From: Mobula hypostoma
Lineage: Eukaryota
Reading direction: 5' to 3'
DNA length: 64,000 bases
Assembly (NCBI RefSeq): GCF_963921235.1
Contig: NC_086097.1
Span: forward strand, 176,702,001 to 176,766,000
This document shows, in pieces, positions 15,203 through 45,560 of this stretch (positions within the stretch are counted from its first letter, which is position 1; every line of letters begins with the position of its first letter). A program made the position numbers and the translations under genes. The notes under the pieces were generated by a model. That model had not been told where the DNA came from and searched no databases. It saw only the letters and a program-made list of their open reading frames with translations.

Positions 15203-15778
15203 AGTAGTAGCAGCCATCGATCCCAGGGGATCATGGGATGGAACCTCTGATGGACTGTGCCCTCTCAAGAGCACAAGCCTGGGCGGGAAGATTTGAAGAA
15301 CTGGCTGTTGCCCATGCAGCGGGATTTCCCCTCTCCACGTCACTAATTTAGTCTAAGGGAAGGGCAAGCGCCGATATGGCTTGGCACCTGTCTCGTCGCA
15401 GATGTTGCCAGAGTGAAGTTGTAAGCAATATCAAACTGCCTTAGGGACTCCGGCTCCAGATTTCTTCCTTAGCATTTACTCCTGAAGCCTTTCCTTTGGG
15501 TGGATATGGCCGCAAGATAGTGAAGGTTTAAAATCAGAGTTTTCCTTCTCCCAGGCAGGTTGCTATTCAAGGCTGACGAGACCCACCTGCCCAAAGCAAC
15601 TAGTTTTGAGGTACCAGTGGTCCATCTTTTTCCCTTCTCTTGTCAGTAGAAACAGTTCCGCTGGGCCTAGTAGCTAAGCCACACGTGAAGGCCAAGAGAT
15701 GGACTTGGTTGTCAGAGGCTGTTAGTGACACAAGCCATTTGGAGCACTTCATAGGTAGTGGGAGCTTATCAATCTTAC
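15203..15778 (-). mobile_element. Non-autonomous RTE/Vingi-type SINE
   Basis: (CTA)n tail on minus strand, terminal stem ccatgatcccctgggatcgatgg, motif shared with 7895-8245. Confidence 0.55.
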
Positions 15779-15779
15779 T

Positions 15780-16905
15780 ATTGAGAAAGTAAAGAGGCAT
15801 GGGATCCAAGGGGACATTGCTTTGTGGATCCAGAACTGGCTTGCCCACAGAAGGCAAAGAGTGGTTGTAGACAGGTCATATTCTGCATGGAGGTCGGTGA
15901 GCAGTGGTGTGCCTCAGTGATCTGTTCTGGGACTCTTCATGATTTTTATAAATGACCTGGATGAGGAAGTGGAGGGATGGGTTAGTAAGTTTACTGATGA
16001 CACAAAGGTTGGAGGTGTTGTGGATAGTGTGGAGGGCTGTCAGAGGTTAGAGTGGGACATTGATAGGATGCAAAACTGGGCTGAGAAGTGGCAGATGGAC
16101 TTCAACCCAGATAAGTGTGAAGTGGTTCATTCTGGTAGGTCAAATATGATGGCACAATATAGTATTAACGGCAAGATTCTTTGCAGTGTGGAGGATCAGA
16201 GGGATCTTCGGGTCCGAGTCCATAGGATGCTCAAAGCAGCTGCGCAGGCTCTTTGGTTAAGAAGGCGTACGGTGTATTGGCCTTCATCAATCGTGGGATT
16301 GAGTTTAGGAGCCGAGAGATAATGTTGCAGCTATGTAGGACCCTAGTCAGACCACACTTGGAGTACTGTGCTCAGTTCTTGTCACCTCACTATAGAAAGG
16401 ATGTGGAAACCATAGAAAGGGTGCAGAGGAGATTTACAAGGATGTTGCCTGGATTGGGGAGCATACCATATGAGGATAGGTTGAGTGAACTCGGCCTTTT
16501 CTCCTTGGAGCGACGGAGGATGAGAGGTGACCTGATAGAGGTGTATAAAATGATGAGAGGCATTGATCGTGTGGATAGTCAGAGGCTTTTTCCCAGGGCT
16601 GAAATGGTTGCTGCAAGAGGACACAGGTTTAAGGTGCTGGGGAGCAGGTACAGAGGAGATGTCAAGGGTAAGTTTTTTACTCAGAGAGTGGTGGGTACAT
16701 GGAATGGGCTGCTGGCCACTGTGGTGGAGGCAGATACAATAGGGTCTTTTAAGAGAATTTTAGATAGGTACGTGGAGCTTAGTAAAATAGGGGGCTATAG
16801 GTAAGCCTAGTAATTTCTAAGGTTGGGACGAGTTCAGCACAACTCTGTGGGCTGAAGGGCCTGTATTGTGCTGTAGGTTTTTTATGTTTGTATGTTTCTA
16901 TGACT
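15780..16905 (+). mobile_element. CR1 LINE 3' part, relatively young
   Basis: ORFs 15939-16322 and 16253-16804 with SKFTDDTK and LVRPHLEYCAQF; tail tatgtttgtatgtttctatg. Confidence 0.95.
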
Positions 16906-17845
16906 ATGACAACATTAGGGGGATTTGATAGAGGCACAGTATGCCATATTGTGAGAGGTACAATAGGATAATGCAAGCAAGCTTTTTCTGCTGAGTTTGG
17001 GTGACACTAGATCTAGTGGTCATAGGTTAATGGTGAATATTGTAGGGAAAGATAGCGGGGGTCTTCTTCACACAGAATGCAGAGCAAATGAGAAATGAGA
17101 TGCCAACGGATGTTGTGGATGCAGATACAATTACAATATTGAAGAGAAGTTTGGATAAGTATATAAACTGGAGGGATATGGAGGGCTATGGTCCAGGTGC
17201 AGGTCAATGGGACGAGGCAGATTAATAGTTTGACATGGACTAGTTCGACCAAAATGCCTGTTTCAGTGCTGTAGTGCTCTATGACTCTTTGACACTATCA
17301 CTTTATGTTCTGACATGCCCAAAGCATCCTTGAAGGATTGCATTATTGCCACTGATTCCTGCGGCTCTCTGTCCCATGAAATGGAGAAGGAGGATCGAGG
17401 ATTGTGTGAAGAAGCCTGCCTTGCTTGCTGTCTACTGCTACTCCTCCAAACTTTGTGTGATCTGCAATTTTGCTGATCAAATTTACCACTTTAATTGGCA
17501 CCAGGATCACGTGCAGCCCCTGGCTGAAGGAGTGAATCATCTCACAAACTACCCTACCCCTCACCTTGCCCATCTGTGGAATGTTCTGTAGGTTCACGCT
17601 GGTCTCAGCAATCGTCTCAGAGTCTACAGAACTGGAGTTGAAGCAGGCTACATTCAATCCATGGAAATGCCTATGAAAGAATAAGTATTACAATCTTATA
17701 TAGCTTGCAAAGTTATTACTGCATGTTTAGACAGGTTGCACCTGAACTGGAGGGGAACCAATATCCTAGCTTGGAGGCTTGCTAGTGTTACTCAGGAGTG
17801 AGAGCACCAGGTTAGAATGTGAAGGGATGGAGAAACAGATAGATA

Positions 17846-20584
17846 TAGAAAACATAGAAAACATACAGCACAATACAGGCCCTTCCGCCCACAAGCTGTG
17901 CCGAACATGTCCCGACCTTAGAACTACCTAAGCTTTACCCATAGCCCTCTATTTTTCTAAGCTCCATGTAGCCATCCAGGAATCTCTTAAAAGACCCTAT
18001 CGTTTCCGCCTCCACTGCTGCCCTTGGCAGCCTATTCCACACACTCACCACTCTCTGTGTAAAAAACTTACCCCTGACATGTCCTCTGTACCTACTTCCA
18101 AGCACCTTAAAACTATGCCATCTCATGCTAGCCATTTCAGCCCTGGGGAAAAGCCTCTGACTATCAACACGATCAATGCCTCTCATTATATTGTACATCT
18201 CTGTCAAGTCACCACTCATCCTCCGTCGCTCCAAGGAGAAAAGGCCACATTCACTCAACCTATTCTCATAAGGCATGCTCCCCAATCCAGGCAACATTCT
18301 TGTAAATCTCCTCTGCACCCTTTCTATGGTTTCCACGTCCTTCCTGTAGTGAGGCAACCAGAATGGAGCTCAGTACTCCAAATGGTGTCTGACCAGGGTC
18401 CTATATAGCTGCAACATTACCTCTCACTCTTAGACAATCCCACGGTTGATGAAGGCCAATGCACCGTACGCCTTCTTAACCACAGAGTCAACCTGCATAG
18501 CAGCTTTGAGTGTCCTATGGATTCAGACCCCAAGATCCCTCTGATCCTCCAAACTGCCAAGAGTCTTACCATTAATGCTGTATTCTGCCATCATATTTGA
18601 CCTACCAAAATGAACCACCTCACACTTATCTGGGTTGGATTCCTTCTGCCACTTCTCAGCCCTGTTTTGCATCCTATCAATGTCTCTTTGTAACTTCTGA
18701 CAGCCCTCCACACTATCCACAACACTCCCAACCTTTGTGTCATCAGCAAATTTACTAACCCACCCTCTACTTCCTCATCCAGGTCATTTATAAAAATCAC
18801 AAAGAGTAGGGGTCCTAGAACAGATCCCTGAGGCACACTATTGGTCACCAGCCTCTATGCAGAATGTGACCCATCTACAACCTCTTTTTGCCTTCTGTGG
18901 GCAAGCCAGTACTGGATCCACAAAGCAATGTCCCTCTTTGATCCCATGCCTCCTTACTTTCTCAATAAGACTCGCATGGGATACCTTATTAAATGCTTTG
19001 CTAAAATCCATAAACACTACATCTACGGCTCTACCTTCATCTATGTTTAGTCACATCCTCAAAAAGTTCAGTCAGGCTCATAAGGCACGACCTGCCTTTG
19101 ACAAAGCCATGCTGACTATTCCTAATCATATTATGCCTCTCCAAATGTTCATGAGTCCCGCCTTTCAGGATGTTCTCTATCAACTGAAGTAAGACTCACT
19201 GGCTTATAATTTCCTGGGTTATCCCTACTCCCTTTCTTGCACAAGAGAACAACATCCGCAACCCTCCAGTCCTCCAGAACCTCTCCCATCCTCATTGATG
19301 ATGCAAAGATCATTGCCAGAGGCTCAGCAATCTCCTCCCTCACTTCCCACAGTAGCCTGGGGTATATCCCATCCCATCCCAGTGACTTATCCAACTTGAT
19401 GCTTTCCAAAAGCTCCAGCACATCCTCTTTTTTAATATCTACATTCTCAAGCTTTTCAGTCCACTGCAAGTCATCCCTACAATCACCAAGATCCTTTTCC
19501 ATAGTGAATACTGAAGCAAAGTATTCATTAAGTACCTCCACTATTTCTTCCGGTTCCATACACACTTTTCCATTGACACACTTGATTGGTCCTATTCTCT
19601 CATGTTTTATCCTCTTGCTGTTCACATACTTGTAGAATGCCTTGGGGTTTTCCTTAATCCTGTCCGCCAAGGCCCTCTCATGGCCTCTTTTGGCTCTCCT
19701 AATTTCATTCTTAAGCTCCTTCCTGCTTGCCTTATAATCTTCTAGATTCATATCATTACCTACCTTTCTGAACCTTTCGTAAGCTCTTCTCTTCCTCTTG
19801 ACTAGATTTGCAACAGCCTTTGTGCACCACAGATCTTGTACCCTACCATCCTTTCCATGTCTCATTGGAACATACCTACTCAGAACCCCACGCAAATATC
19901 CCCTGAACATATGCCACATTTCTTCGGTACATTTCCCTGAGAACATCTGTCTCCAATTTATGCTTCCAGGTTCCTGCCGATAGCCTCATATTTCCCCTTA
20001 CTCCAATTAAACCTCTCCCAAACTTGTCTGTTCCTATCCCTCTCCAATGCTATGGTAAAGGAGATAGAATTGTGATCACTATCTCCAAAATGCTCTCCTA
20101 CTGAGATATCTGACACTTGACCAGGTTCATTTCCCAATACCAGATCAAGTACAGCCTCTCCTCTTGTAGGCTTATCTGCATAATGTGTTAAGAAACCATC
20201 CTGAACACACCAAACAAACTCCACCCCATCTAAACCCCTCACTCTATGGAGATGCCAATCAATATTTGGGAAATTAAAATCTCCCACCACGACAACCCTG
20301 TTATTATTACTCCTTTCCAGAATCTGTCTCCCTATCTGCTCCTCGACGTCCCTGTTACTATTGGGTGGTCTATTAAAAACACCCAGTAGAGTTATTGACC
20401 CCTTCCTATTCCTAACTTCCACCCACAGAGACTTCGTAGACAACCCCTCCATGACTTCCTCCTTTTCTGCAGCCATGACACTATCTCTGATCAACAGTGC
20501 CACGCCCCCACCTCTTTTGCCTCCCTCCCTGTCCTTTCTGAAACATCTAAAGCCTGGTGCTTGAAGTAGCCATTCCTGCCCCAT
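17846..20584 (-). mobile_element. CR1 LINE ORF2 nearly complete (endonuclease + RT), frameshifted
   Basis: ORFs 19958-20584 (GDFNFPNIDW, GDSDH), 19149-19946, 18591-18848, 17935-18357; tail aaaacatag repeats. Confidence 0.95.
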
Positions 20585-21075
20585 TGAAAATAGACAGGAG
20601 CAAAGTAATAGATAGGATAGGATGGATTGTTAGTTATGTGTATATTTTACGGCTAGGATCATTATGGGTAAAGGAGATGAACTTAAAGCATGGATTAGTA
20701 CATGGAACTATGATGTTGAGGCTATTACGGAGACTTGATTGAGAGAGGGTCAGGAATGGGTGCTTAATGTCCCAGGTTTTCGATGTTTTAGAAAAGATAG
20801 AGAGGGAGGCAGTGTGGAGTTGCACTACAAATCAGGGATAATATCACAGTTGCACTCAGAGGGGACATAATGGAAGGCTCATCCACTGAGTCTATATGGG
20901 TACAACTTAAAGTCACCCTGATGGGATTGTACTTCTGGGCCTTCAACCCCAACCCCTGACCCTCACACAAATGTCATTGGAACATTAAGGAACAGATAAC
21001 CAAGCAAGTTGAGGGAAGATGTAAAAATAATAGGGTTGTTGTCATGGGGGACTTCATTTTCCCTAATATAAATTG
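20585..21075 (+). mobile_element. CR1 endonuclease fragment
   Basis: Degenerate VEAITET, PGFRCFRKDR, VVVMGDF. Confidence 0.8.
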
Positions 21076-24065
21076 GGACGGATGGTAGTTTGTCTTCCAG
21101 GTGCCAGGGTCCGAGATGTTTCTGGATGCATCCACAAGATCCTGAAAAGGGAGGATGAGCAGCCAGAGGTCATAGTACATATTGGTGCCAACAACATAGG
21201 TAGGAAAAGGGAGGAGGTCCTGTAAAAAGAATACAGGGAGCTAGGAAGGAAACTTAGAAGAAGGACATCAAGGTAGTGATCTTGAGATTGCTGCCTGTGC
21301 CATTCGACAGTGAGGATAGGAATAGAATGGAGAGGCAGATAAATGCATAGCTGAGGAATTGGAGCAGGGGGCAGGGATTCAGATTTCTGGATAATTTGGA
21401 CCTCTTCTGGGGCAGGTGTGATCTATACAAAAGGGATGGGTTGCACTTGAATCCGAGGGGGGCCAATATTCTTGCAGGCAGGGTTACTAGAGTTGTTGGG
21501 AGTAATTTAAACTAATATGGCACGGGGATGAGAACCAGTATGGGAGAGCTAAGGGTGAGCCAGCAGGTTTACAATTGGGTGATGGATTGTAGCATGAATG
21601 TAAGGAAGGACAAGCCAATGACTGGGTACAAATTCAGACAGTGCAAAGAGTTAAATTGTACCACAGAGACAACATTCAAATGGGAAAAAAATACAGGACT
21701 GAAGGTGCTGTATTTAAATGTGCGTAGCATTTGGAAAATAAGGTGGACGAACTCGTGGTGCAATTAGACATTGATCAGTATGACGTTGTGGGCATCACTG
21801 AGTCATGACTAAAATAAAGGCCATAATTGGAAGCTTAACATCAAAGGACATACATTGTATCAAAAGGACAGGCAGGAAGGCATAGGTGGTGGTGTGGCTC
21901 TGTCGGGAAGAGATGGAATTACATCTTTAGAAAGAGGTGACGTAGGTTCAAAAAATGTTGAATTTTTTGGATGAAGTTAAGAAACTGCAAGGGTAAGGAA
22001 ACATTTATGGGTATCATATATAGGCTACCAAATAGTAGCTAAGATGTGGGGTTGAGATTACAAAGGCAGCTGGAAAATGCATGCAATAAGGGTAATGTCA
22101 CAATTATAATGGGGAACTTCAATATGCAAGGGGATTGGGAAAATCAGATTGATGTTGCATCGCAAGAGAAGGAACTTGTTGAATGCCTATGAGGTGGCTT
22201 TTTAGAGCAGCTTGTGTTTGAACCTACTTGGCAAAAGGCTACCTTAGATTGGGTATTGTGTAATAACTCAGATCTTATTAAAGGAACCCTTAGGAGGCAG
22301 TAATCATAATACGATTGAATTAATACTGCAATTTGAAAGAGAGAAGCATAAGTCACATGTATCAGTATCACAATGGAATAAAAGGAATTACGGAGGCATG
22401 AAAGAGGAGCTTGTCCAGGTGGACTGGTGGAGGATACTATCGGGGTGATGGCAGATCAGAGGTGGCTGATGTTTCAGGGAATAGTTCACAAGGTTCAGGA
22501 TAGATATATCCCACAGAGGAAGATGTTATCAAATGGCAGGGGTAGTTAAACGTGGCTGTCAAAGGAAGTTAAGGACTGCATAAAAACCAAGGAAAGGGAA
22601 TATAAGGTAGCAAAGGTGAGTGGGAAGTTAAATGATTGGGAAGTTTTTTAAATCCAACAAAAGGCATAAGAAGGGAAAAGATTAAATATGATGGCAAACT
22701 AGCCAATAATATAAAGCAGGATACTAAAAGTTTTTTTTTTCATTTATACAAAGAGTAAATTGGAGGTGAGAGTTGATATTGAACCACTGAAAAATGATGC
22801 TGGTGAGGTAGTAACAGGGGACAAAGAAATGGCAGATGAACTTAATGGGTACTTCGCATCAATCTTCACTGTGGAAGACATTAGTAGTGTGCCAGAGGTT
22901 CGTGACTGCCATTGTTATTACAAAGGAAAAAGTGCTTGGCTGACTCAAAGATCTTAAGGTGGATAAGTCACCCAGAGTCCTAAGAGAGGTTGCTGAAGAG
23001 ATAACGGATACATTGTTCATGATCTTTCAAGAATCACTTGATTCTGCATTGGTCCCGGAGGACTGAAAGATTGCAAATGTCACTCTGCTCTTTAAGAAAG
23101 GAGGAAGGCAAAAGAAAGGAATTTATAGGCCAGTTAACCTAACCTCGTTGGTTGGGAAAATGTTGGAGTCTATTATTAAGGATGAGGTTTTGGGGTACTT
23201 GGAGACTACTGATAAAATAAGTCAAAGTCAGTATGGTTTCTATAAAGAAAAATCTTGCCTAACGAATCTGTTAGAGTTCTTCGGGGAAGTAACAAGGTGA
23301 GTGGACAAAGGAGAGGCAGTGGATGTCATTTGCTTGGACTTTCAGAAGGTGTTTGATAAGGTGTCACACATGAGGCTGCTTAACAAGATCAAATCCTATG
23401 GTGTTACTGGAAAGATACCGGCATGGATAGCAGAATGGCAGCGTGTGAATAATAGGGGCCTTTTCTGATTGGCTAATGGTGACTAGTGGTGTTCCTCAGG
23501 GGTCAGTATTAGGACCACTGCTTTTCACATTGTTTGTCAATGATTTAGATAATGGAATTGATGGCTTTGTGCAAAGTTTGCAGATGATAAAAAGATAGGT
23601 GGAGGGGTAGATAGTGCCGAGGAAGCAATGCGATTGCAGCAGGACTTATTGGAAGAATGGGCAAAAAAGTGACAGACTGAATACAGTGTTGGGAAATGTA
23701 GAATAATGCATATTGGGAAAAGGAACAATAGTGCAAACTATTATCTAAATGGGGAGAAGGTTCAAACATCAGAGGTGTAAAAAATCTTGAAAGTCCTTGT
23801 GCAAGACTCCCAGAAAGTTAACTTACAGGTTGAGTCTGTGGTAAAGAAGGCAAATGCAATGTTGGCATTTATTTCAAGGGGAATAGAATATAAAAAACAA
23901 TGAGATAATGCTGAGCCTTAATAAGATTCTAGTTAGGCCACATTTAGAGTATTGTCAACAATTTTGGACCCCATATCTCAGAAAGGATGTGTTGTCATTG
24001 GAGAGAGTCCAGAGGTGGTTTACAAGGATGATTCTGGGAATGAAGTGATTAACATATGAGCACTG
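21076..24065 (+). mobile_element. CR1 LINE (ORF1 C-terminal part + ORF2), degenerate
   Basis: ORF1 VHIGANN and DGLHLN; ORF2 LKVLYLNVRSI through LVRPHLEY; many stops. Confidence 0.92.
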
Positions 24066-24910
24066 TTTGGTCTTATGGGACCTTCTGAATGCAAGAGGCT
24101 CAGATGGAGTTGAATTTATTAGGTACATCCAAGAGGCTTTCCTAATTCAATATGTAGATAGTCTAACAAGAGGGAGGGCTGTACTGCACCTGGTGTTGGG
24201 TAATGAGCTTAGCCAGGTGACCAACCTTTCAGTAGGTGAGCAGTTAGAAAACAGTGACCACAAACCCATTAGTTTTAAGATACGTAGCTATAGATAAGGA
24301 TAAGTAATGGACCTTGCAGGGGAGCATTAATTTAGAGCAGTGCAAATTATGAGCACGTTAGGGAGAAACTAGGGAGAGTTAATTGGGAACAGTTGTTTTT
24401 GGGCAAGTCCATATCTGACACATGGAGAATCTTTAAAGACCAACTGCACAGAGTATAGGACAGATATGTTCCGGTAAGAAGGAAGGACAAGGATGGCAAG
24501 TTGAGGGAACCTTGGATGAATTTAGTCAAAAAGAAAAAGGAAAAATATGTGAAGCTTAGGAAACTAGAATCAAACAGAGCCCTTAAGGATTATAAAGAAG
24601 ACAAAAAAGAATTAGAAAAGCCAGGAGGGCCCATGAAAAGTCCTTGACAAGTAGGATTAAAGAGAATCCCTAGGCATTCTATACATACATCAAGAGCAAG
24701 AGGATAACTAGGGAGAGGGTAGGGCCACTCAGAGATAAAATTCTGACATTTGCTTTGATGGGGAAGATGTAGGTGAGGTCCTTAGTAAGTCATTAGTACT
24801 TAACTCCTGGATAAGTATTTACCAAGGACAAGGAGGATAGGGAGATCAGTGCTGGGTGTATTGATATGCTGGAGCATTTTGAAGTAAAGGAGGAGAGAAG
24901 AGCAATAAGG

Positions 24911-27900
24911 TGTTGCAACGAATGAGGCGAACCCAAGCACAGGACACAGGCACGGAGATTTAGTTAGGATGCAGACACGGGCATGAGCGTTGAATGGCAA
25001 ACAGGAGGGAGAGCAGGAAGACAAGAGACAGGCAGAATTTATCTTGACACGGAGAGACTGGGTTTCACAGGTAAACCTCAGAACTGGAGTAGAACTTAGA
25101 AAACTGATCTGACACTGGGAGATTGAGTTTCACAGATAAATCTCGGTACTGAAGCAAAAATTAAGACACACAATCCTAAGCGGCCGCACTGGCAAAACCA
25201 ACAATCTGGCAACTAGTGGGTGCAAAGCCGGGCTTCTTATGCTGCAGATATTGAGGAAAACCAGGTGTGTCGTCATCAAAGGGAATTAGGAGAAAATGGC
25301 GAATTAACGGTCAGGACTGTGACAGGCCCGCCATCCCCCCTTAACGAGAGCCTCCACGCGAACCACCAGGATTGTCTGGATTGTCTCGATGGAAATCACG
25401 GATGAGGGAAGGGTCCAGGATGAAGGAGTGGGGAATCCAGGTGTGCTCCTCAGGGCCGTAATCCTCCCAATCGACCAGGTACTGGAGACACCTGCCTCAA
25501 CGGCGCACATCCAGTATTCACCGGATGGTGTACGCTGGGTAATCGTCAATGACCCGGGTGGGAGGAGGAGGTTCAGCAGGAGGGCACAAAGGGCTGACAG
25601 ACACAGGTTTCAATTGGGAGACGTGGAACGCGGGATGAAACTGCATGGATCTGGGCAGTTTGAGTCTGACTACCAAGGGGTTGATAATGCTCTGAATCTC
25701 GAATGGCCCGAGGTAGCGAGGGGCGAGTTTCTTGGGGGGATGTCTTTTGACGAGAGCCAAACCTTCTGACCAGGCCAATAATTAGGTGCATGAATTCGAT
25801 GGCGATCGGCAATCCTTCTGTTGCAGTCGGCTGAGCGGAGCAGGGCTGCGCGTGCATCCTTCCAGATCTTGCGGCACCGGCGGGGATGAGCCTGAACTGA
25901 AGGCACAGCAATGTCATCTTCGTGGGCAGGAAACAGAGGGGATTGATAGCCAAGGGAGCATTCGAAGGGAGACATTCTGGTGGTGGTGCTGACCAGGGAG
26001 TTGTGGGCATACTCCACCCAAACGAGATGGGTGCTCCAGGATGACGGGTTGTTGGCGGTTATGCAGCGCAGTGCTTCCAAATCCTGGTTTGCTCGTTCTG
26101 TTTGACTATTAGTCTGTGGATGGAAGCCAGAAGACAGGCTTACTGAGGCTCCAAGGGCTTGACAAAAGGATCTCCAGAATTGAGAGGTGAATTGGGGGCC
26201 CCAGTCAGAAACAATGTCAGAGGGAATTCCATGAAGGCGGAAGACGTGATGGACAAGGAGGTCGGCTGTCTCATGGGCTGTAGGGAGTTTGGGAAGGGCT
26301 ACAAAGTGCACGGCTTTGGAGAAGCAGTCCACCACGGTGAGTACGGCAGTGTTCCCATGTGAAGTGGGTAGTCCAGTGACGAAATCCAGAGCAATGTGAG
26401 ACCAAGGGCAGCTAGGGACAGGTATGGGACGAAGCAACCCAGCAGGTGTTCAATGGAAAGCTTTTCCGTGGGCACACACAGTACAGGCAGAGACGAAGGG
26501 GCGAGTGTCAGCATCCATGGCGAGCCACCAGAAATGACGCTTCAGAAGTGACAGAGTTCAATCGATTCCAGGATGGCAGGTGAACTGGGAAGTAGGCCCC
26601 CACTGGAGAACCTTAGACCGAACAGAATCAGGCACAAAGAGGCCACTGGGGGGTCCATTGCCTGGGTCAGGTTGGGTCCGTTGGGCCTCTTTGACTACAG
26701 ACTTGATCTCCCAGGTGAGGACAGCCACAACACAGGATGGTGAAAGGATGGTATCGGAGTTGGGAAGGCCCTCCTCAGAGATGTATTGACTAATTATGAT
26801 CAGAGATTAAGGGAGCTAGGGCTTTACTCTTTGGAGAGAAGGAGGATGAGAGGAGGCATGATAGAGGTGTACAAGATAATAAGAGAAATAGATAGAGTGG
26901 ACAGCCAGCGCCTCTTCCCCAGGGCACCACTGTTCAATACAAGAGGATATGGCTTTAAGGTAAGAGGTGGGAAGTTCAAGGGGGATATTAAAGGAAGGTT
27001 TTTTACTTAGAGAGTGGTTGGTGCGTGGAATGCACTGCCTGAGTCAATGGTGGAGGCAGATACACTCGTGAAGTTTAAGAGACTACTAGACAGGTATACG
27101 GAGGAATTTAAGGTGGGGGGTTATATGGGAGGCAGGGTTTGAGAGTCGGCACAACATTGTGGGCTGAAGGGCCTGTAATGTGCTGTACTATTCTATGTTC
27201 TATGTTCTAAAGAGAGCATCGGGCTTCCCGTTCTCGGAGCCAGGACTATAAGTGAGTGTGAGTCTGAAATGGCCAAAAAATAATGCCCAACAGGCTTGGC
27301 GGGAATTTAGGTGTTTGGCGGTTTGGATGTATGCAAAGTTCTTGTGATCTGTCCAGACAATAAATGTATGTTCTGCTCCCTCCAGCCAGTACCTCCACTC
27401 CTCCAAGGCGAGTTTGACGACCAGCAACTCCTGGTCCCCAACGTCGTAATTCCGTTCAGCGGGGGATAGACGATGAGAGAAGAAGGCGCAGGGATGGAGC
27501 TTTTGGTCTAGGACAGAGCATTGGGAAAGGACCGCTCCCACCCCAGAGTCAGGGGTGTCGACTTCCACAATGAATTGACGAGAGGGGTCAGGTTGGGCCA
27601 GGATGGGAGCGGAAGTGAAATGCCTCTTTAGCTTCGAGAAGGCTGAGTCCACTTTGGGGTCCCAGTGAAAAGGGGTCGTAGGAGAGGTGACTCGAGTAAG
27701 GGGCTGCCACCTGGCTGTAATCCCTGATGAAGCGACGATAAAAGTTTGTGAACCCCAGAAATCACTGGGGTTGTTTGAGCGTCATGGGTTTTGACCACTC
27801 TGCCACTGCCCGGATCTTTTCAGGATCCACCCTCACTTGCCCCCTCTCAATGATGTACCCCAGAAAACTGACAGAAGGGACATGAAACTCACACTTCTCT

Positions 27901-30543
27901 GCCTTAATGAATAGCTTGTTCTCCAAAAGCCTCTGAAGAACATGACGGACATGGTGGGAGTGTTCCTGAAGACTGCGGGAGAAGATTAGGATGTCAACCA
28001 AATAAACAAAAACGAAACGGTTAATGAAGTCCCTAAGGACATCGTTTACCAGGGCTTGGAAGACGGCGAGAGCATTGGTGAGACCGAGTGGCATGACCAG
28101 ATATTCAGAATGATCAAGAGGGGTGTTAAATGCTGTTTTCCACTCATCTCCCTCCCTTATCCTGACCAGGTGATAAGCACTCCATGGGTCCAACTTAGAG
28201 AAAATTGTGGCTCCGTGAGGTGGTTCGAAAGCAGAGTTGATAAGGGGCAGGGGATACGTATTCTTTATGGTGATGCTGTTCAGGCCACAGTAGTCAAGGC
28301 AGGGGCACAGTGAGCCGTCTTTTCTCCCCCACAAAGAAGAAACCTGCGCCTACAGGAGAGAATGAGGGTCAGATAATGCCAGCCGCGAGAAAGTCATTTA
28401 GGTAAGCCTCCATTGCTTCCCTTTCTGGTCGAGACAGGTTATACAGCCAACTGGTGGGTAGAGGGGCTCCGGGGAGAAGGTCAATTGCACAATGGTAAGG
28501 GCGATGTGGAGGCAGGGAAAGAGCCCGTTGCTTACTAAACACTTCTCCCAGGTGGTGATACTCTGCTGGAACCTTGGATAAGTCGGGGGTTCAGAGGCAG
28601 ACGAGGTCATGGTGACCTCCACTGGGGAAAGGGCTGATTGTAGACAAGTGGAGTGACAGCTGACTATCCTCCCAGTGGACCAGTCAATGCAGGGGTTATG
28701 GCGGCTTAACCAGGGGTAACCAAGAACTATAGGAGCTTGAGGAGAGGAAATTAAATTGAATTGTACCTGTTCCCGATGGTTCCTGGAGAGAAGGAGAGAC
28801 AGGGGTGGTGTGCAGTGTGTGACTCGGGCCAGTAATCTACCGTCCAGTGCCCGGGCTTCCAGGGGGGCACGCAACGGCTCACGAGGAATTCTGGCCCAGA
28901 AAGCTAAGTCTTCATCCAAAAGGTTTCCCTCGACGCTGGAGTCTACTAGTGCTGACAGAGGCAGGGACTGTTGGTTGTAACATAAAGTAGCTTGAAGCTG
29001 CATCCGGGTTTGGGGGACGGAAGGGAATGTTGTCTGGCTCACCAGGGTCCCCCTCTCTACTGGTGAGTCTTCCCTTTTTGGCTGAAGGGGACAGGTAGCA
29101 CGGAAGTGGCCGGACTGGCTGCAATATGGTCGCTCACCCACTCTCAATCTCCGGAGTCGTTCTGTGGAGGAAAGACAGTTCCGCCCCAGCTGCATGGGTT
29201 CCTCTCCCAGGTCAGTGGAAACGGCCGGGCTGGAAACTACTCTAGGAGCAGGAGGAGGAGAGAGACTTGTTCTGGCGGGAGGCGGTAATGAGTGCCGAGG
29301 AGTGGCCAAAGGCTGTGGACGACCAGTTCTTTCTCTATGGCATTCTCGGAGACGATTGTCCAACCTGGTGGCTAGGGAGATCAAGGAACCCGGGCTGTCG
29401 GTGTCGTCTCTTGCCACCAACTCGTCTTTTACCATGTTGCTGAGACCATTCCGAAATAACCCTTGGAGTGCCTCATTGTTCCACTCCGAGTCGGCCGCTA
29501 ATGTCCGGAACGCCACAGAATATTCGGCAACACTGCGTGAACCCTGACTGAGAGTGAGTAGACATTTGGCGGCGTCTTTACCACGGACGGGGTCGTCAAA
29601 GATCTTTCTCATTTTCACGATAAAGGTGGCAAAAGAAGAGCAGATATCCGGTTGGCTATCCTCAGCAGCTGTGGCCCATGCTAAGGCACTTCCCCGCAAC
29701 AACCTCATGATGTAATCAATCTTTGATTTATCCGTGAAGTACATGGACAACTGCTGTTCGAACACCAAGGAGCACTGAAGAAGGAAGGCCCGGCACTTTC
29801 CCAAATCCCCAGCGTAATGCTTCGGTTCAGGTACGTGATGCTGTCTTGGCGGGAGTGTTACTGGCATGTAGGGGATTGCCGCTACAGGCTGTCTGGGCTG
29901 GTCAGACAGGGTTCCAGGAGTGGATAGGGTAAAATGAGTGGATACACGGTCCACCTGGTCACCAATCTTTGTTATGTCAGCAGACAGGGAACGGAGGTTC
30001 TTCATGACCTCCTGGAGGAGTTGGTCGTACAGACTCAGTAGGGAACCCTGGCTGGCGAGGGCTTGTTGAAGAGTATTCGTGTCCACTGGGTCCATAATGG
30101 CCAGATCGTTCTGTTGCAACGAATAAGGCGAACCCAAGCGTAGGACACAGGCATGGAGATTTAGTTAGGATGCAGACGCGGGCGTGATTGTTGAATGGCA
30201 AACAGGAGGGAGAACGGGAAGGTAGGAGACAGGCAGAATTTATTTTGACATGGAGAGACTGGTTTTCACAGGTAAACCTCAGAACTTGAGTAATACTTAG
30301 AAAACTGATCTTGACACAGAGAGACTGAGTTTCACAGATAAATCTCGGTACTGAATCAAAACTTAGGACACACAATCCTAAGCGACCGGGAAACGTTAAT
30401 TACCACACTGGCAAAACCAACGATCTGGCAACTAGTGGGTGCAAAGCCGGGCTTCTTATGCTGCCATTCTTGATGAAAACTAGGTGTGTCATCATCAAAG
30501 GGAATTAGGAGAAAATGGGGAATTAACAGTTGGGACTGTGACA
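24911..30543 (-). mobile_element. Full-length Ty3/Gypsy chromovirus (sushi-like) LTR retrotransposon, inactivated
   Basis: LTRs 24911-25324 and 30112-30543 (TG...CA); 5-bp TSD TAAGG; gag-protease 28398-30137, RT 27762-28334, RNase H 27200-27652, integrase 25670-26437 ([20 protein letters not shown]), GPF motif and chromodomain ([13 protein letters not shown]). Confidence 0.97.
26790..27207 (+). mobile_element. 5'-truncated CR1 inserted in Gypsy pol
   Basis: [20 protein letters not shown]; tail ttctatgttctatgttcta; possible ctaa TSD. Confidence 0.92.
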
Positions 30544-36679: not shown

Positions 36680-37476
36680 TGGGGCTGAGAAGTGGCAGAT
36701 GGAGTTCAACCCGGATAAGTGTGATAGGTCAAATATGATGGCAGAATATAGTATTAATGGCAAGACTCTTGGCAGTGTGGAGGATCAGAGGGATCTTGTG
36801 GTCCGAGTTCAAAGGATACACAAAGCTGCTGCGCAAGTTAGCAATGTGGTTAAGAAAGCATATGGTGCATTGGCCTTCATCAATCATGGGTTCGAGTTTA
36901 AGAGCCGAGAGGTAATGTTGCAGCTATATAGGACCATGGTCAGACCCCACTTGGAGCACTGTGCTCAGTTCTGGTCGCCTCACTACAGGAAGGATGTGGA
37001 AACCATTGAAAGGGTGCAGAGGAAATTTACAAGGATGTTGCCTGGATTGGGGAGCATGCCTTATGAGAACAGGTTGAGTGAACTCAGCCTTTTCTCCTTG
37101 GAGCAATGGAGGATGAGATGTGACCTGATAGAGGTGTATAAGATGATGAGAGGCATTGCTCGTGTGGATAGTCAGAGGCTTTTTCCCAGGGCTGGAATGG
37201 CTAGTACAAGAGGGCATAGTTTTAAGATGCTTGGAAGTAGGTACAGAGGAGATGTCAGGAGTAAGTTTTTTACGCAGGGAGTGGTGAGTGCGTGGAATGG
37301 GCTGCCAGCGATGGTGGTGGAGGCGGATACGATAGAGTCTTTTAAGAAACTCTTGGACAGGTACATGGAGCTCAGAAAGATAGAGGGCTATGGGTAACCC
37401 TAGGTAATTTCTAAGGTAAGGACATGTTCAGCACAACTTTATGGGCCGAAGTGCCTGTATTGTGCTATGTTTCTAC
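36680..37476 (+). mobile_element. CR1 3' part inserted in Penelope
   Basis: ORF 36699-37397 (232 aa) is CR1 ORF2 C-terminus. Confidence 0.95.
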
Positions 37477-38427
37477 GTTTATAAAAGATGTCGGTCGACA
37501 GTTTGTCTCCAATTTTGAGACAGAGAGAACAAGACAGGGGAAGGAGATGTGAAATGGACCAAGTGAATTTAAGGGAAGGGTGGAAGTTGGAAGCAAAGTT
37601 AAAGAAATTGACAAGCTCAGCATGGGTGCTTGAAGTAACACCAATGCAGTCAACAATGTAGTGGAGGAAGAGTTGGGGAGCATTACCAGGCAAAACTGGG
37701 AACATGGACTGTTCTACATAGCCAATGAAAAGGTATGCATAGCTGGGGCCCATACAGGTGCCCATGGCTTCCCCTTGAGCCAGGAGAATGTGGGAGGAGC
37801 TGAAGGAGAAATTGTTGAGGGTGAGGATCAGTTCTGTCAGATGGAGGAGGGTGGTGGTGGAGGGAAATTGGATGGTCCTTTTATTAAGAAAGAAGCAGAG
37901 AGTTTTAAGGCCATCTTGATGGGTGATAGAAGTGTATAGGAATACTACACCCATGGTGAAAATGAGGCAGTCAGGGCCAGGGAATTGAAAGTTAATGAGG
38001 AGATGAGAAAGTTGCAGATGTAGGAAAGGAAAAAACCAAGGAAGAGAGAATAGAGTCAAGGTATGAAGACACGAGTTCAGGGGGACAAGAGCAGACGGAG
38101 ACAATGGCCCTACCCAGACAATCAGATTTGTGGATCTCGGGCAGGAGGTAAAAGTGAGAAAAGAGGGGTAAGAGAACTATGAGTTTTGTGGCAGTAGATG
38201 GGAGCTCTCCAGAGTTGATGAGATCAGTGATGGTGCTAGAGACAGTTTTCTGATGGTCTGGTGAGGGGTCCTTTTCAAGGCATAGTTATGAGGAGGTGTC
38301 TGAGAGATGCTGCCTGGCCTCAGCAAAGGTAGAGGTCAGTCTGTCACACTGCAACAGCACCCCGTTTGTCTGCGAGTTTGATGGTCAGGTTAGGATTGGT
38401 GGGGAGAGCGCGGAGGGCAGTGCATAC

Positions 38428-38567: not shown

Positions 38568-39092
38568 ATACTGAAGGGGTAAGATTGGAGGAGAAGAGAG
38601 GAGTACTGGAGGTGAGCTGGTTGCTGTCTTGTCGACATTTCAAGATGATAGGACCCAGGGAAGGCAAAGAACCAAAGCGGGCTGTCCAAGAAGAGGAGGA
38701 GGGTTGCAGATGGGACAAGGGATCATCAGTGCGGTGTGGGAAATTCTTGCAAAAGAAGTGGGCCCAAAGACAGAGGTGATGGAAGGAACACTTGGCATCA
38801 TACGGGAGCAGAACTCACTGAGATGTGGGCATTTCAGTGAAAAGGGTCAATGGAAAGACCTCAGAGAGGGGAAGGTCAGAAAGAATGGCGAAGTGGAGAG
38901 AGTAGAAGGTGTCAGAGGAAGAGAGACAGTTAGGGTGTAAAAAGAAGGTAGGATGGGAGGGAGATGGAGGTCTGAGGATCCAAGAGCTGATAGTAGAGCC
39001 TGAGAGATCCTGAGTTGGAGTGTGGTGTTGGGGGAAGGGGAGAAGGGGAGCCTGGGGGCCCAGTGGCAGAGAGGAAGGTCTCAACCTGGAGG

Positions 39093-40026
39093 TAAACATA
39101 CATAGAAACATAGAAAATAGGTGCAGGAGTAGGCCATTTGGCCCTTCGAGACTGCATCGCCATTCAGTATGATCATGGCTGATCATCCAACTCAGAACCC
39201 TGTACCAGCCTTCCCCCCATACCCACTGATCCCTTTAGCCACAAGGGCCATATCTAACTCCCTCTTAAGTATAGCCAATGAACTGGCCTCAACTGTTTCC
39301 TGTGGCAGAGAATTCCACAGATTCACCACTCTCTGTGTGAAGAAGTTTTTCCTAATCTCGGTCCTAAAAGGCTTTCCCTTTATCCTCAAAATGTGACCCC
39401 TCGTTCTGGACTTCCCCAACATCGGGAACAATCTTCCTGCATCTAGCCTGTCCAATTCCTTTAGGATTTTATGCGTTTCAATAAGATCCCCCCTTGATCT
39501 TCTAAATTCCAACGAATATAAGCCTAGTCGATCCAGTCTTTCATCATATGAAAGTACTGCCATCCCAGGAATCAATCTGGTGAACCTTCTTTGTACTCCC
39601 TATGGCAAGGATGTCTTTCCTCAGATTAGGGGACCAAAACTGCACACAATACTCCAGGTGTGGTCTCACCAAGGCCTTGTACAACTGCAGTAGTACCTCC
39701 CTGCTCCTGTACTCGAATCCTCTTGCTATGAATGCCAGCATACCATTCGCCTTTTTCACCTCCTGCTGTACCTGCACGCCCACTTTCAATGACTGGTGTA
39801 TAATGACACCCAGGTCTCGTTGCACCTCCCCTTTTCCTAATCGGCCATCATTCAGATAGTAATCTGTTTTCCTGTTTTTGCCACCAAAGTGGATAACCTC
39901 ACATTTATCCACATTAAATTGCAACTGCCATGAATTTGCCCACTCACCTAACCTATCCAAGTCACGCTGCATCCTCTTAGCATCCTCCTCACTGCTAACA
40001 CTGCCGCCCAGCTTCGTGTCATCCGC
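39093..40026 (-). mobile_element. 5'-truncated CR1, same subfamily as 41564-43707
   Basis: ADDTKLGGSVSSEEDAKRMQ...; one frameshift; aaacatag tail. Confidence 0.95.
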
Positions 40027-40265
40027 AGCCAAGGTCCAGCCTGGAGCCAGAGTTGGGGGCCATGCAATTTTCAGTCTGAAGATGTCGGGAGTTGTTGGAA
40101 CTGGCACTGATGGCAGTGGAATCTGAGCTCTGGATCTAATCGAGGTTATTCGAACCAGTGTGGACAACAAGTGTGTCATTGGTCCAGAGGAACTGGAGCA
40201 GGAACCGGGCTTGGCAACAATTATATCACTGGTCCAGAGGCATCTAGGTCTGTCAGAGCGGGGGT

Positions 40266-40964
40266 TGTGATCATTTTTACTGTTTAAAATGTATCAAGCG
40301 GTGGCTTGAATCAGGACAACGACTCTGCCCACTGCGCCGTACTTCTCCAGATGATGGTTATGTACCAGCGGTAACAGAAGAAATAAGTGAAGCTGTAGCA
40401 AAATTAGTCATATTTCGCAAGATGTGCGATGCATTTTTCATAGCTTTGGTTTCCATGGTCTGCTTCAAAGATGACTTGCCACCGACAAAAGAAGTGATTG
40501 GTGATCTTCTGTCTCTGCTAGTTATTCAAAAGTCGGGCAGTCCAATGACTCACAGAAAGATTAGTACTTTACCAGTAACAGTTCACCATTTGGTGAAGCA
40601 GTTGATCGAAATCCTGTTGTTCGTTCCATTGTTCTTAGGCTGCTGTTAAAGTACAGTTTTGCTGATATTAAGGATTACCTGCAGTGCTATCTGTCTAGCT
40701 CAGGAGGGAGAATTCCTTCTGGTGCACATTGAGCACAAGTGTGAAAATACAACAATGGAACCCTTACAGTTTGTTGCCAGAATTCGCCTCTGTTTTGATG
40801 CTGTTTCCCAACTTTTTTGTGAGAAGCAAGACACATTGGCTGAGGATTCAAAATATGTATGTGCAAAAGAAACTTTCCTGCAAAGGATTAAGTGTATGAT
40901 TCTCAATGGAGGAAATGATTGGTTCGAGATTTACCTTGTGCAAAAGCTGTTCTGTTTGAATGGA
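40266..40964 (+). pseudogene. RNF213: Intronless RNF213 (mysterin) fragment: RING C-terminal half and following E3 region
   Basis: CDHFYCLKCIKRWLESGQRLCPLR...FRKMCDAFFIALVSMVCFKDDLPPTKEVIGDLLSLL; SPFGEAVDRNPVVRSIVLRLLLKYSFADIKDYLQ; VARIRLCFD...[12 protein letters not shown] match recalled RNF213; frameshift and internal deletion. Confidence 0.9.
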
Positions 40965-43744
40965 GATGCTGGTCTTTTCGGAGATTTAAGCTTATTGAGA
41001 ATTTGCAGATCTTCCATTATCTGTTCATCTGTTTACAAGTAATTTAACAGCGCAGGTGCAGGTTTTTGTCTTTTGTCGGTAATTGGAACAGGGTCATTAG
41101 GTCTCCTCCTTAGTTTCCTAGTCGTTATTGACTTTACCTCTATAGAAACTCCTGTGAGTTCTATTGTTAGTCTCTCATTCTCAATCATCTATTTTCTTTT
41201 CTTCTAACTCAATCTTCTTATCTTCAAATTCCTTCACTGCTGCTTTCTTTCACTTGTTCTGTCTCCAGTTGCAGAAAAAGTTCTGCATTTCATATTCTTT
41301 CCTTGTATTGTTGATCTGGTTTCTTCATCCTTTTCTGATACTCCTGCAAAGTGCCTTCCTGCAACTGCTGTAGCTGTCTTTTGAGAGATGTCAATTTCTC
41401 CTGGTACATCTGCTGTTTTACTTCCAGGTAGACTTCATCATCCTGCTTATTGGCAATATCTGTCTCCCTTGTATCCTCTGTATCATCATCAGAGTCGCTG
41501 CCACGGATACTGCATTTTTCCTCATCATCAACGCTGTCTAGCTCTTCCTCATTGTAGTAATAGAAACATAGAAACATAGAAAATAGGTGCAGGAGTAGGC
41601 CATTCGGCCCTTCGAGCCTGCACCGCCATTTATTATGATCATGGCTGATCATCCAACTCAGAACCCAGCCTTCCCTCCATACCCCGTGACCCCTGTAGCC
41701 ACAAGGGCCATATCTAACTTCCTTTTAAACATAGCTAATGAACTGGCCTCAACAGTTTGCTGTGGCAGAGAATTCCACAGATTCACCACTCTCTGTGTGA
41801 AGAAGTTTTTCCTAACGTCGGTCCTAAAAGGCTTCCCCTCTATCCTCAAACTGTGACCCCTCGTTCTAGACCTCCCCAACATCGGGAACAATCTTCCCGC
41901 ATCTAGCCTGTCCAATCCCTTTAGGATCTTATACGTTTCAATCAGATCCCCCCTCAATCTTCTAAATTCCAACGAGTACAAGCCCAGTTCATCCAGTCTT
42001 TCTTCATATGAAAGACCTGCCATCCCAGGAATCAATCTGGTGAACCTTCTTTGTACTCCCTCTATGGCAAGGATGTCTTTCCTCAGATTAGGGGACCAAA
42101 ACTGCACACAATACTCCAGGTGTGGTCTCACCAAGGCCTTGTACAACTGCAGTAGTACCTCCCTGCTCCTGTACTCGAATCCTCTCGCTATAAATGCCAG
42201 CATACCGTTCGCCTTTTTCACCGCCTGCTGTACCTGCATGCCCACTTTCAATGACTGGTGTATAATGACACCCAGGTCTCGTTGCACCTCCCCTTTTCCT
42301 AATCGGCCACCATTCAGATAATAATCTGTTTTCCTATTTTTGCCACCAAAGTGGATAACTTCACATTTATCCACATTAAATTGCATCTGCCATGAGTTTG
42401 CCCACTCACCCAACCTATCCAAGTCACCCTGCATCCTCTTAGCATCCTCCTCACTGCTAACACTGCCACCCAGCTTCGTGTCATCCGCAAACTTGGAGAT
42501 GCTGCATTTAATTCCCTCATCCAAGTCATTAATATATATTGTAAACAACTGGGGTCCCAGCACTGAGCCTTGCGGTACCCCACTAGTCACCGCCTGCCAT
42601 TCTGAAAAGGTCCCGTTTATTCCCACTCTTTGCTTCCTGTCTGCTAACCAATTCTCCACCCACACCAATACCTTACCCCCAATACCATGTGCTTTAAGTT
42701 TGCACACTAATCTCCTGTGTGGGACCTTGTCAAAAGCCTTTTGAAAATCCAAATATACCACATCCACTGGTTCTCCCCTATCCACTCTACTAGTTACATC
42801 CTCAAAAAATTCTATGAGATTCGTCAGACATGATTTTCCTTTCACAAATCCATGCTGACTTTGTCCGATCATTTCACCGCTTTCCAAATGTGCTGTTATC
42901 ACATCCTTGATAACTGACTCCAGCAGTTTCCCCACCACCGACGTTAGGCTAACCGGCCTATAATTCCCCGGTTTCTCTCTCCCTCCTTTTTTAAAAAGTG
43001 GGGTTACATTAGCCACCCTCCAATCCTCAGGAACTAGTCCAGAATCTAACGAGTTTTGAAAAATTATCACTAATGCATCCACTATTTCTTGGGCCACTTC
43101 CTTAAGCACTCTGGGATGCAGACCATCTGGCCCTGGGGATTTATCTGCCTTCAATCCCTTCAATTTACCTAACACCACTTCCCTACTAACATGTATTTCG
43201 CTCAGTTCCTCCATCTCACTGGACCCTCTGTCCCTTACTATTTCTGGAAGATTATTTATGTCCTCCTTAGTGAAGACAGAACCAAAGTAATTATTCAATT
43301 GGTCTGCCATGTCCTTGCTCCCCATAATCAATTCACCTGTTTCTGTTTGCAGGGGACCTACATTTGTCTTTATCAGTCTTTTCCTTTTTACATATCTATA
43401 AAAGCTTTTACAGTCCGTTTTTATGTTCTCTGCCAGTTTTCTCTCATAATCTTTTTTCCCCTTCCTAATTAAGCCCTTTGTCCTCCTCTGCTGAACTCTG
43501 AATTTCTCCCAGTCCTCAGGTGAGCCACTTTCTCTGGCTAATTTGTATGCTACTTCTTTGGAATTGATACTATCCCTAATTTCTCTTGTCAGCCACGGGT
43601 GCACTACCTTCCTTGATTTATTCTTTTGCCAAACTGGGATGAACAATTGTTGTAGTTCATCCATGCAACCTTTAAATGCCTGCCATTGCATATCCACCGT
43701 CAATCCTTAATAGTCGACAATGGATAGAGGAGAGCTGTGGACAT
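40960..43744 (-). pseudogene. SUDS3: Processed SUDS3 (Sin3 complex SDS3) copy, 3'-truncated, split by a CR1 (parts 43744-43708 and 41563-40960)
   Basis: MSTALL..(V)[15 protein letters not shown]...[31 protein letters not shown]...[14 protein letters not shown]...[22 protein letters not shown]; no introns; stops and short deletions. Confidence 0.95.
41564..43707 (-). mobile_element. Young 5'-truncated CR1 with uninterrupted 681-aa RT frame
   Basis: ORF 41658-43703 with [25 protein letters not shown]; 6-bp TSD taatag (41558-41563, 43708-43713). Confidence 0.97.
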
Positions 43745-45560
43745 CTTCCCTGCCAAGCTGCCCTCCTTTGTTGATACATCTAGTGCCTTGATGGTGTGCC
43801 AATCCAGCTGGATTTTCCTGAGCCATTCACGTCCCAGCGACGGTGGTCCTCCATTTTTCAGTACATAGAGGTTCAGCTGCTGTGTTTTGTCTCCGTATGT
43901 CACTGTCACTTTAATTTTGCTTTTGGGACACACTTTCTGTCCTGTGTAAGTCTTTAGCAGTAGTGTAGTTCGTTTCAGAGGTATGTGAGAAAACAGTTGT
44001 TTGTAGTTGTGTACAGAGATCACTGTTAAAGCTGAGCCTGTGTCTAACTCCATTTTCATTATCACGCCTGCCACTTGTGGAGTGATCCTTATTACTCTTT
44101 GATCACCTGTCTCTTCCATGTTGTGAAGTGGCAGACAAGACAATTCATTTTCATCTGAGTCTTTTTCATCAGAACTGCTTTCTTCCATTTTGTGTATATT
44201 ATTGTGTTTTCCTTTCTGGGCTTTCTTGTTTCTCTGTATTTTGTCCTTTTTCTGCTGTTTACTAGCTTTGCATACTCTGCCAATGTGGCCCTGTTTGCCA
44301 CAGTTTTGGCATTCTTTGTCTTTAAACCAACAGTCATACAGGTCATGTGACCTGTTCCCACAACGGTAACATTTCTTTCCTTCATTTCTGTTCAGTGACA
44401 TTTTATTCATAGCATATTCCAGAGATTTTTGTTGTATCTCGGAAGCACCCCATGCCGCTATTTCCATTGATATTGCAATGTTGAGCGCTTTCTCGAATGT
44501 AAGGTCTCTTTCACACAGAAGCTTCATCTGTGTTGTTTCACAGTGCATGCCACACACTAACCTGTCCCTCAATGCATCTGATAGACCAGCTCCAAATTGA
44601 CAATGTTCTGATAATTTGCGCAATTCAGCACAATATTCAGAAAGGCTTTCATTTTCACTCTGATTCCGATTGTGAAATTTAAATCTTTCAGCAATGACCA
44701 TTGGTTTGGGGTTTAAATGCAGTTGGAGAGTGTCGACTATTTGCTTGAACATTTCGTCAGCTGGCTTTTCGGGGGTTAACAAGCTCCGTAGCAGGCCATA
44801 TGTTTTTGCTCCCATAATACTGAGTAAGACTCTGGCTTTCTTTTCATCCTTAACACCGTTAGCCTCACAATATAACTCCACTCTTTTAATGTAAGTTGCC
44901 CAATCTTCAATGTCACTATCAAATGCTGTTCCAATCATCACCATCTTTGTTATGTTAATTAAGCCCCGTTCTCCCCTTATTTTCCTTTTTGATTCATGTG
45001 TCCTTTTTGCTAGCGCCACGAGCACACTCCGTCTAGACGTGTGTGTGTCGCTCCTTTTTATCTCCCTTCTGGGGCAGGCAGACCCGCAGACCCTCAGCCC
45101 CTGGGGGTCAGCGCCGGCTGTGGTCTCGGCTGGACGTACTGTGGATCTGACTGTGTCTCTTGATCTCCCGATGTTCCCGATCCCGGCTGTGCTCCCGCTT
45201 CCTTTCAGACTCGCAGCCTCACTCTGCCTCCTTCTCCTGCTCCTTGGCTCGTTCCTTGCGCTCTTCCTCCAAGTGTCATTATCAACTAAAACACAACGTT
45301 CCGATAAGGTGTAGGTTCATTAACCTCGTCGCCAATTTGTTGTGTATGTGGCCCAGTTACACAACAATGCTATTAATAAAAATGCTGCACACGGGAGCTA
45401 AGTTTTATGGTTCTTTACTGGCATAATCCAAACTTGGCACACACGTACAGATCAATACGTGCCTAATAGCGCATGCTCAATATGCGCGTAATAGCGCATT
45501 CAACGACGTGTTACTAAAACATAAATTAGTCCCTTATTATACTGTAGGCTATATGGTACA
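43745..45560 (-). mobile_element. Gypsy (Mag-like) 5' half: LTR, PBS, open gag-protease
   Basis: LTR about 45338-45560; PBS TGGCGACGAGG (45334-45324, complementary to the tRNA-Ser(GCU) 3' end); LRDRLVCG; two CCHC knuckles CYRCGNRSHDLYDC and CQNCGKQGHIGRVC; protease LDTGS...LGREWL. Confidence 0.92.
45062..45272 (-). pseudogene. ACIN1: ACIN1-like C-terminal coding fragment with stop codon and short 3' UTR, inside the Gypsy leader
   Basis: LEEERKERAKEQEKEAE*GCESERKREHSRDREHREIKRHSQIHSTSSRDHSRR* versus recalled Acinus end [39 protein letters not shown]; low complexity reduces certainty. Confidence 0.7.

Follow-up and report, generated by a model that had tools for sequence, protein, structure and literature searches.

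The long terminal repeat (LTR) element described here is of a kind already known, as LTR-mediated retroposition by template switching (Tan et al., 2016, PMC5131818; also PMC5408686), multi-gene chimeras and the maize element Bs1 are all on record. It lies in a stretch of 64,000 nucleotides of the ray Mobula hypostoma (NC_086097.1, positions 176,702,001 to 176,766,000 of the forward strand), here called the window, and joins a Gypsy-type gag-protease frame to the start codon of SUDS3, the host gene for the chromatin regulator SDS3. Like the LTR-mediated retrocopies reported in PMC5131818, it holds spliced host sequence in place of the internal genes of the element and pieces of at least two genes within one element, and sense cargo in that report often keeps the parental reading frame, a feature shared with the ray element. 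One side of the element is dropped by older copies reported there, and in the window the LTR-part flank is present to the left of the cargo and lost to the right. Unlike the cases described in that source, which concern single or few loci, the ray family goes back to one founder whose copies are found at many loci, in three or more ray species. Maize Bs1, as presented in PMC5131818 and PMC5408686, likewise combines pieces of several host genes within an LTR element, and a title cited there speaks of a hybrid open reading frame; it is however a plant element, whereas the present one, a vertebrate Gypsy, has taken up the complete coding sequence of a chromatin regulator, with the join at the start codon of that gene. 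In the mouse intracisternal A-particle (IAP) 1-delta-1 element a gag fusion acts in cis, aiding the defective RNA (PMC6466679, citing Saito et al., 2008). That element resembles the ray element in being non-autonomous, in having a new fused frame that starts from gag and in needing helper enzymes, but its fusion is gag-pol with a demonstrated cis action (PMC6466679), whereas the ray fusion is gag-host.

With fish K02A2.6-like Gypsy gag-pol the element shares a Gag with two CCHC knuckles and a protease in one frame (50-77% identity), but those proteins continue into reverse transcriptase, RNase H and integrase; in the window, SUDS3 sequence takes over approximately 15-20 residues past the protease domain. 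Acutely transforming gag-onc retroviruses are enveloped, and their fusion protein is strongly selected. They too have Gag in frame with a captured host coding sequence, have lost replication genes and need a helper; unlike them, the ray element has a Gypsy-type gag-protease, no env and no sign of selection on the fusion. The first-pass annotation of this DNA had likened the locus to gag-onc transduction, and the likeness very probably holds for the in-frame gag-host fusion in the founder; beyond that it is an analogy only, given the lack of env and the spread of a sub-lineage with truncated SDS3. A literature search that reached few subscription journals found no published description of a Gag-SUDS3 family.

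Junction of a Gypsy gag-protease frame with SUDS3

The minus-strand frame 45316-43700 is open for 538 codons from stop to stop and reads ...DWHTIKALDVSTKEGSLAGKMSTALLYPLSTIKD. From the gag methionine at 44944 to 43745 it spans 400 codons with 0 stops, the two shifted frames containing 26 and 33, and the SUDS3 ATG at 43744 follows in the same frame, just as the first-pass annotation had it. This ATG is taken as the true SUDS3 start because ray parent proteins begin MSAALLSPIVDYY, as seen in four of the parent type (P0126, P0125, P0122 and P0136); the fish-type N-terminus given in that annotation differs from the ray parent at several residues. The frame matches K02A2.6-like Gypsy gag-pol proteins at up to 63% identity over 96-99% of the query (the best at 63% over 99%) and the Gypsy relative P0243 at 77% over 271 amino acids. 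A gag zinc knuckle and an aspartic protease are present, with weak Pfam matches that lie below curated cut-offs. Homology to P0243 ends about six codons before the ATG at 43744, element-derived sequence stopping at about 43770-43750, and the last few codons before the ATG are probably SUDS3 5' untranslated region.

The SUDS3 body holds approximately 215 codons in 605 bases. As no intron is present at four points where the parent isoforms differ, which are taken to mark exon positions, the SUDS3 body is a spliced copy. The best SUDS3 protein matches to the window come from Mobula, Pristis, Hypanus and Hemitrygon, at no more than 88% identity. Reverse transcriptase, RNase H and integrase were not found in 36-46 kb, where seven gag-pol relatives match only 44953-43730 at a meaningful E value, and the window element is therefore a non-autonomous derivative of a K02A2.6-like Gypsy/Ty3 LTR retrotransposon. 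Its order is LTR, primer site, gag-protease, spliced SUDS3 (interrupted by a CR1) and an antisense RNF213 piece, as follows:

45338-45560, minus strand: 5' LTR, 223 bp with TG...CA ends; the sole copy in the window (motif positions, self-blast)
45324-45334, minus strand: primer-binding site, 3 bases past the LTR
44945-45323, minus strand: 5' leader; gag frame stop-free up to 45316; many contigs cover the leader
43745-44944, minus strand: gag-protease open reading frame (ORF), 400 codons, with two CCHC knuckles and a DTG protease motif
43708-43744, minus strand: start of SUDS3, its ATG sharing the gag frame, which is lost at 43722-43725 where one base is missing
41564-43707, minus strand: CR1 long interspersed nuclear element (LINE), 5'-truncated, a later insertion flanked by a 6-base target duplication; ORF2 without a stop over 682 codons
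40958-41563, minus strand: intronless SUDS3 body, parent residues ~12-226; 8-residue gap, two stops and two further frame changes
40266-40960, plus strand: internal part of RNF213 covering the RING and the region after it, on the strand opposite to the element; internal deletion near 40696
40031-40265, no strand assigned: low-copy stretch of no assigned origin (third captured piece or flank), 235 bases, followed by a second CR1

In the window copy the Gag-SUDS3 frame is broken a few codons after the ATG. Sequencing evidence on this point comes from contigs of four of 24 runs (X1, X5, X15 and X16; two are taken as RNA by guess only), read from the best 40 of 740 differences, the best 12 of 38 indels and the best 15 of 550 joints, in tables dominated by CR1. 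An extra base relative to the window at 43722-43725 is carried at a contig depth of 51.3 of 60.1 in X1, 94.3 plus 101 of 262.2 in X5, 13.7 of 26.1 in X16 and 12.8 of 12.8 in X15, on contigs that are few and some of which could derive from the parent SUDS3 gene. The first-pass annotation had proposed one missing base; the contigs carry it, a few bases upstream of where it had been placed. In X15 one contig lacks the CR1 and connects 41563 directly with 43726, keeping the SUDS3 frame, and the sibling proteins P0124, P0127, P0128, P0129, P0131 and P0132 read through the SUDS3 start unbroken. Siblings lacking the one-base break, which the same annotation had advised looking for, are thus represented, as are siblings lacking the CR1. 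Since the missing base is present in most contigs at the SUDS3 start, the founder of the family was very probably an in-frame Gag-Protease-SDS3 fusion, in line with the ancestral in-frame join that had been suggested. No annotated Gag-SDS3 fusion protein was found among the best 120 of 473 and the best 120 of 389 gag matches and 121 fetched SUDS3 proteins, a search that repeat masking weakens.

One amplified capture in rays

The 121 SUDS3 proteins include those of nine “SDS3-like” loci, on contigs different from that of the parent, and all nine share with the window a gap of 8 residues at one and the same site. Five are from M. hypostoma, three from M. birostris and one from H. sabinus, with P0124 and P0241 being isoforms of one locus. 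The 8 residues are kept in all four parent-type ray proteins that span the site. The gap was scored by motif, setting aside the non-ray proteins P0159, P0209 and P0238, which are without the motif, and the region-skipping isoform P0121. In a tree of 16 rows, which left out P0121, P0131, P0136, P0241 and most outgroups, the copies and the window fall on one side of a branch (9 copy rows; support 87/84, not starred). The shape is that of a star, the end branches measuring 0.02-0.09, the inner ones 0.001-0.02 and the parents zero, and the stem of 0.0047 leaves the founder SDS3 nearly identical to the parent besides the gap. Because gap and junctions are shared, the ray copies examined here stem from one capture that was amplified as a mobile element; the further replication supposed in the first-pass annotation is thereby matched by a multi-copy family with a shared derived gap. 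Summed contig depth in X1 reaches 9,420-11,378 over SUDS3 and 14,563-27,448 over gag, with 11.2 for a contig identical to the window locus, values that are not copy numbers and serve only as a sign of “many.”

Of the window, P0128 and P0124, only the window and P0128 group together (88/91). The ten residues encoded in the window across its SUDS3-RNF213 junction recur, among the fetched proteins, in P0241 alone, which then returns to SUDS3. A clade of RNF213-bearing copies (window, P0128 and P0124) is absent from the best tree and is not rejected by it (approximately unbiased test, p-AU 0.116). P0133 aligns gap-free to 43781-43710 in a shifted frame (15/24, E 0.003). The alignment, which extends into a part still similar to the Gypsy relative P0243, suggests that another locus has this gag-SUDS3 join too. 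The frame break common to the window and P0133 was not accepted as evidence of descent, as a short CT repeat lies there and P0123 differs otherwise. The N-terminus of P0133 contains CR1-derived residues. Copies that read to the natural SUDS3 C-terminus are P0123, P0124, P0128 and P0133.

Taken as a whole, these data are probably best explained by LTR-mediated capture of SUDS3 followed by spread in trans, with SUDS3 as a passenger and the window copy decaying. A Gypsy element would have co-packaged spliced SUDS3 mRNA, and reverse transcriptase may have switched template just past the protease (compare Tan et al., 2016). Such a switch would have replaced the reverse transcriptase-RNase H-integrase region and left the SUDS3 ATG in the gag frame, as the structure has it. 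An early copy may then have lost 24 bases by slippage between two short repeats, the observed gap of 8 residues sitting between two in-frame Glu-Leu repeats. The defective element, seen today in many copies, could have multiplied via the enzymes of intact relatives, and a sub-lineage, recognised by its shared junction, would have gained the antisense RNF213 piece that truncates SDS3. Finally, after its insertion the window copy would have undergone neutral decay of both gag and cargo, taken in the CR1 and lost its right end. The order of capture, gap, spread, RNF213 and CR1 is proposed from nested sharing.

The open gag frame and competing explanations

The first-pass annotation had further held that gag stayed under selection while its cargo filled with stops and deletions. 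The state of the cargo is as described, with two stops, three frame changes and the CR1 in 638 bases. Selection on gag, however, is not supported in the window copy. Ten of the best 40 of 740 differences fall in gag, and most contigs differ from the window at these 10 sites, 8 of which are residue-changing at the first or second codon position and 2 silent. The probability of two or fewer silent changes among 10 is 0.43 under neutrality, 0.11 at an omega of 0.5, 0.02 at 0.3 and 0.004 at 0.2; in the cargo 4 of 5 listed sites are residue-changing. Of 65 gag columns invariant among 30 long relatives, 4 are changed in the window (6.2%; leave-one-out median 0, maximum 0.11), as compared with 12 private changes at 181 cargo positions (6.6%, two of them at the CR1 edge uncertain; Fisher P 1.0) and 24 of 181 cargo differences in total (Fisher P 0.17). 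Gag divergence at this locus equals that of the cargo (4/65 vs an end branch of 0.071), the very outcome named beforehand as speaking against selection, and the gag of the window copy appears to decay as much and as neutrally as the cargo.

Several points weigh against this account. The 638 cargo bases hold five frame-breaking lesions, whereas the 1200 bases of gag are free of them (P 0.005 for an even spread of lesions, post hoc), a contrast that exceeds what neutral decay readily gives. None of the five is seen in P0128 or P0124, the sibling models nearest to the window. The codon test draws on only 10 gag sites from the best 40 of 740 differences and is compatible with an omega of 0.5 (P 0.11), and the short inner branches of the tree would be expected equally from a rapid burst and from purifying selection in the masters. 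Nor was any helper element identified. The absence of stops from gag is unsurprising (at 2-3% divergence, P of none is 0.24-0.38); missing frameshifts are the greater puzzle. An unrelated dead Gypsy 15 kb off (24911-30543, minus strand), whose two LTRs are 91% alike and whose pol is broken into several frames, serves as a control in that it too keeps a 588-codon open gag-protease frame. With a repeat-rich cargo, a copy chosen for its openness and this neighbour with its open gag, luck is the favoured reason for the open frame, which in the window copy would be inherited and survive mostly by chance, possibly with help from selection that had earlier kept gag translatable in the replicating masters.

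That last point may be extended into an explanation of its own, in which open, translated gag, rather than SDS3, mattered in cis, so that masters kept gag open for RNA packaging or stability and the cargo took the lesions. This is possible but on balance doubtful. The 5-to-0 lesion contrast would follow from it, as would a frame-keeping 6-base length difference near the gag start (44927; 6 contigs each in X1 and X5) and the spread of the RNF213 sub-lineage despite its truncated SDS3, and mouse IAP 1-delta-1 provides a precedent (PMC6466679). However, invariant gag residues are lost at the rate of the cargo, the listed changes are mostly non-synonymous, and total divergence of cargo and gag does not differ significantly. 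It is rather unlikely that the founder Gag-Protease-SDS3 polyprotein was itself functional for the element, as a Sin3L/HDAC subunit with a gap in its dimerisation coil and a counter-silencing or a nucleic-acid- or RNA-recruiting role that drove the burst to hundreds of ray copies. SDS3, freed by the protease or tethered to Gag, would interfere with Sin3L/HDAC silencing or bind nucleic acid of the element. SDS3 is described as dimerising the Sin3L/Rpd3L complex through an antiparallel coil, as tied to heterochromatin and as binding G-quadruplexes with its C-terminal domain (PMC8800102). The whole coding sequence seems to have been taken from the ATG and in frame, the founder protein to have been almost parental besides the gap, several copies read on to the C-terminus, and the gap falls within the solved SDS3 coiled-coil chain 4zqa. 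Yet one join in three would be in frame by chance, the position of the gap between in-frame repeats makes it frame-keeping by mechanism, no fusion protein occurs among the best 240 gag matches and the SUDS3 proteins, the RNF213 sub-lineage spread without the C-terminal domain, and the end branches are long and neutral-looking. There is no evidence for usefulness of the hybrid protein, and the window copy is dead and decaying.

Two further explanations concern the origin and the fate of the locus rather than the role of Gag. A SUDS3 retrocopy made by a LINE could have landed behind the protease of a resident Gypsy, with the hybrid spreading thereafter. The window is dense in CR1 pieces, CR1 having been very active in it, and a preprint ties non-mammalian retrocopies to CR1/Tx1 (10.64898/2026.06.26.734816). 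A plain insertion would, however, keep the reverse transcriptase-integrase region downstream, and as none was found in 36-46 kb this origin is very unlikely. That the host kept the window locus as a gag-protease gene is the least credible proposal and borders on negligible: the frame is open with CCHC and DTG motifs and the upstream LTR is intact, but radical changes have hit residues conserved in P0243 and the 30 relatives, 8 of 10 listed changes are non-synonymous, and no close annotated orthologue occurs among the matches listed (best 77%). Capture and spread in trans with SUDS3 as a passenger remains the preferred reading.

Retrocopy counts and accompanying sequences

In a preprint covering 244 vertebrate genomes, SUDS3 ranks in the top five genes by retrocopy number for cartilaginous fishes; such rankings are attributed there to expression bias and host selection, with LINEs as the engine (10.64898/2026.06.26.734816); supplementary tables 8-11 of the same source may bear on copy counts and species. 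The amplified Gypsy family probably explains the rank of SUDS3, as the ray copies examined here represent one amplified capture and not independent retrocopies. The family offers many natural copies for asking whether a captured host frame aids the spread of an LTR element, and the element, if its polyprotein did function, would be a case of a vertebrate retrotransposon exploiting a chromatin regulator taken from its host. In the RefSeq-type sets for Mobula and Hypanus, cargo of this mobile element figures as protein-coding genes named “SDS3-like” (P0123-P0133, P0241).

The match of a 1633-nt contig of run X15 starts exactly at the inner edge of the LTR (45338). The primer-binding site presumably fits tRNA-Ser. 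The CpG observed/expected ratio is 1.04 in the LTR (45338-45560) vs 0.31-0.46 in gag, cargo and CR1. No second LTR (sought by self-comparison), polypurine tract, target duplication or right end of the element occurs within the window, and no env-like frame is found among its listed ORFs. The missing right end falls at the edge of the CR1 at 39087-40030. This CR1 and the one in the cargo (41564-43707) are young members of one subfamily, 91-97% alike and less than 1.5 kb apart; the latter has an RVT_1 match (E 5e-34) and a 6-base duplication at 43713-43708 and 41563-41558.

The RNF213 piece matches solved RNF213 at an E of 1e-24, with a summed X1 contig depth of 812-1,442. From 40335 onwards, the window has G/C by transition at 11 of 18 listed RNF213 sites where nearly all contigs have A/T, a bias that is the reverse of the drift in gag and could reflect double-stranded RNA editing or derivation from another RNF213 paralogue. 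At about 40935 (minus strand), just within the antisense piece, is a strong splice-donor-like site, and the sibling models P0124/P0241 resume SUDS3 after the RNF213 region, so that the insert may be handled as an intron, whether in annotation or in fact.

Searches of Pfam, PDB and Atlas with 40031-40265 gave nothing usable, and the proposal that 40036-40265 is an integrase tail received no tblastn support. Five contigs each in X1 and X5 are listed at 40070. Further out, a decayed frame without a Pfam match lies at 37439-38176 (minus strand), which we take to resemble a Penelope-type reverse transcriptase. The stretch 40031-40265 itself holds a 39-base imperfect direct repeat (40152/40202) and is possibly a third captured piece.

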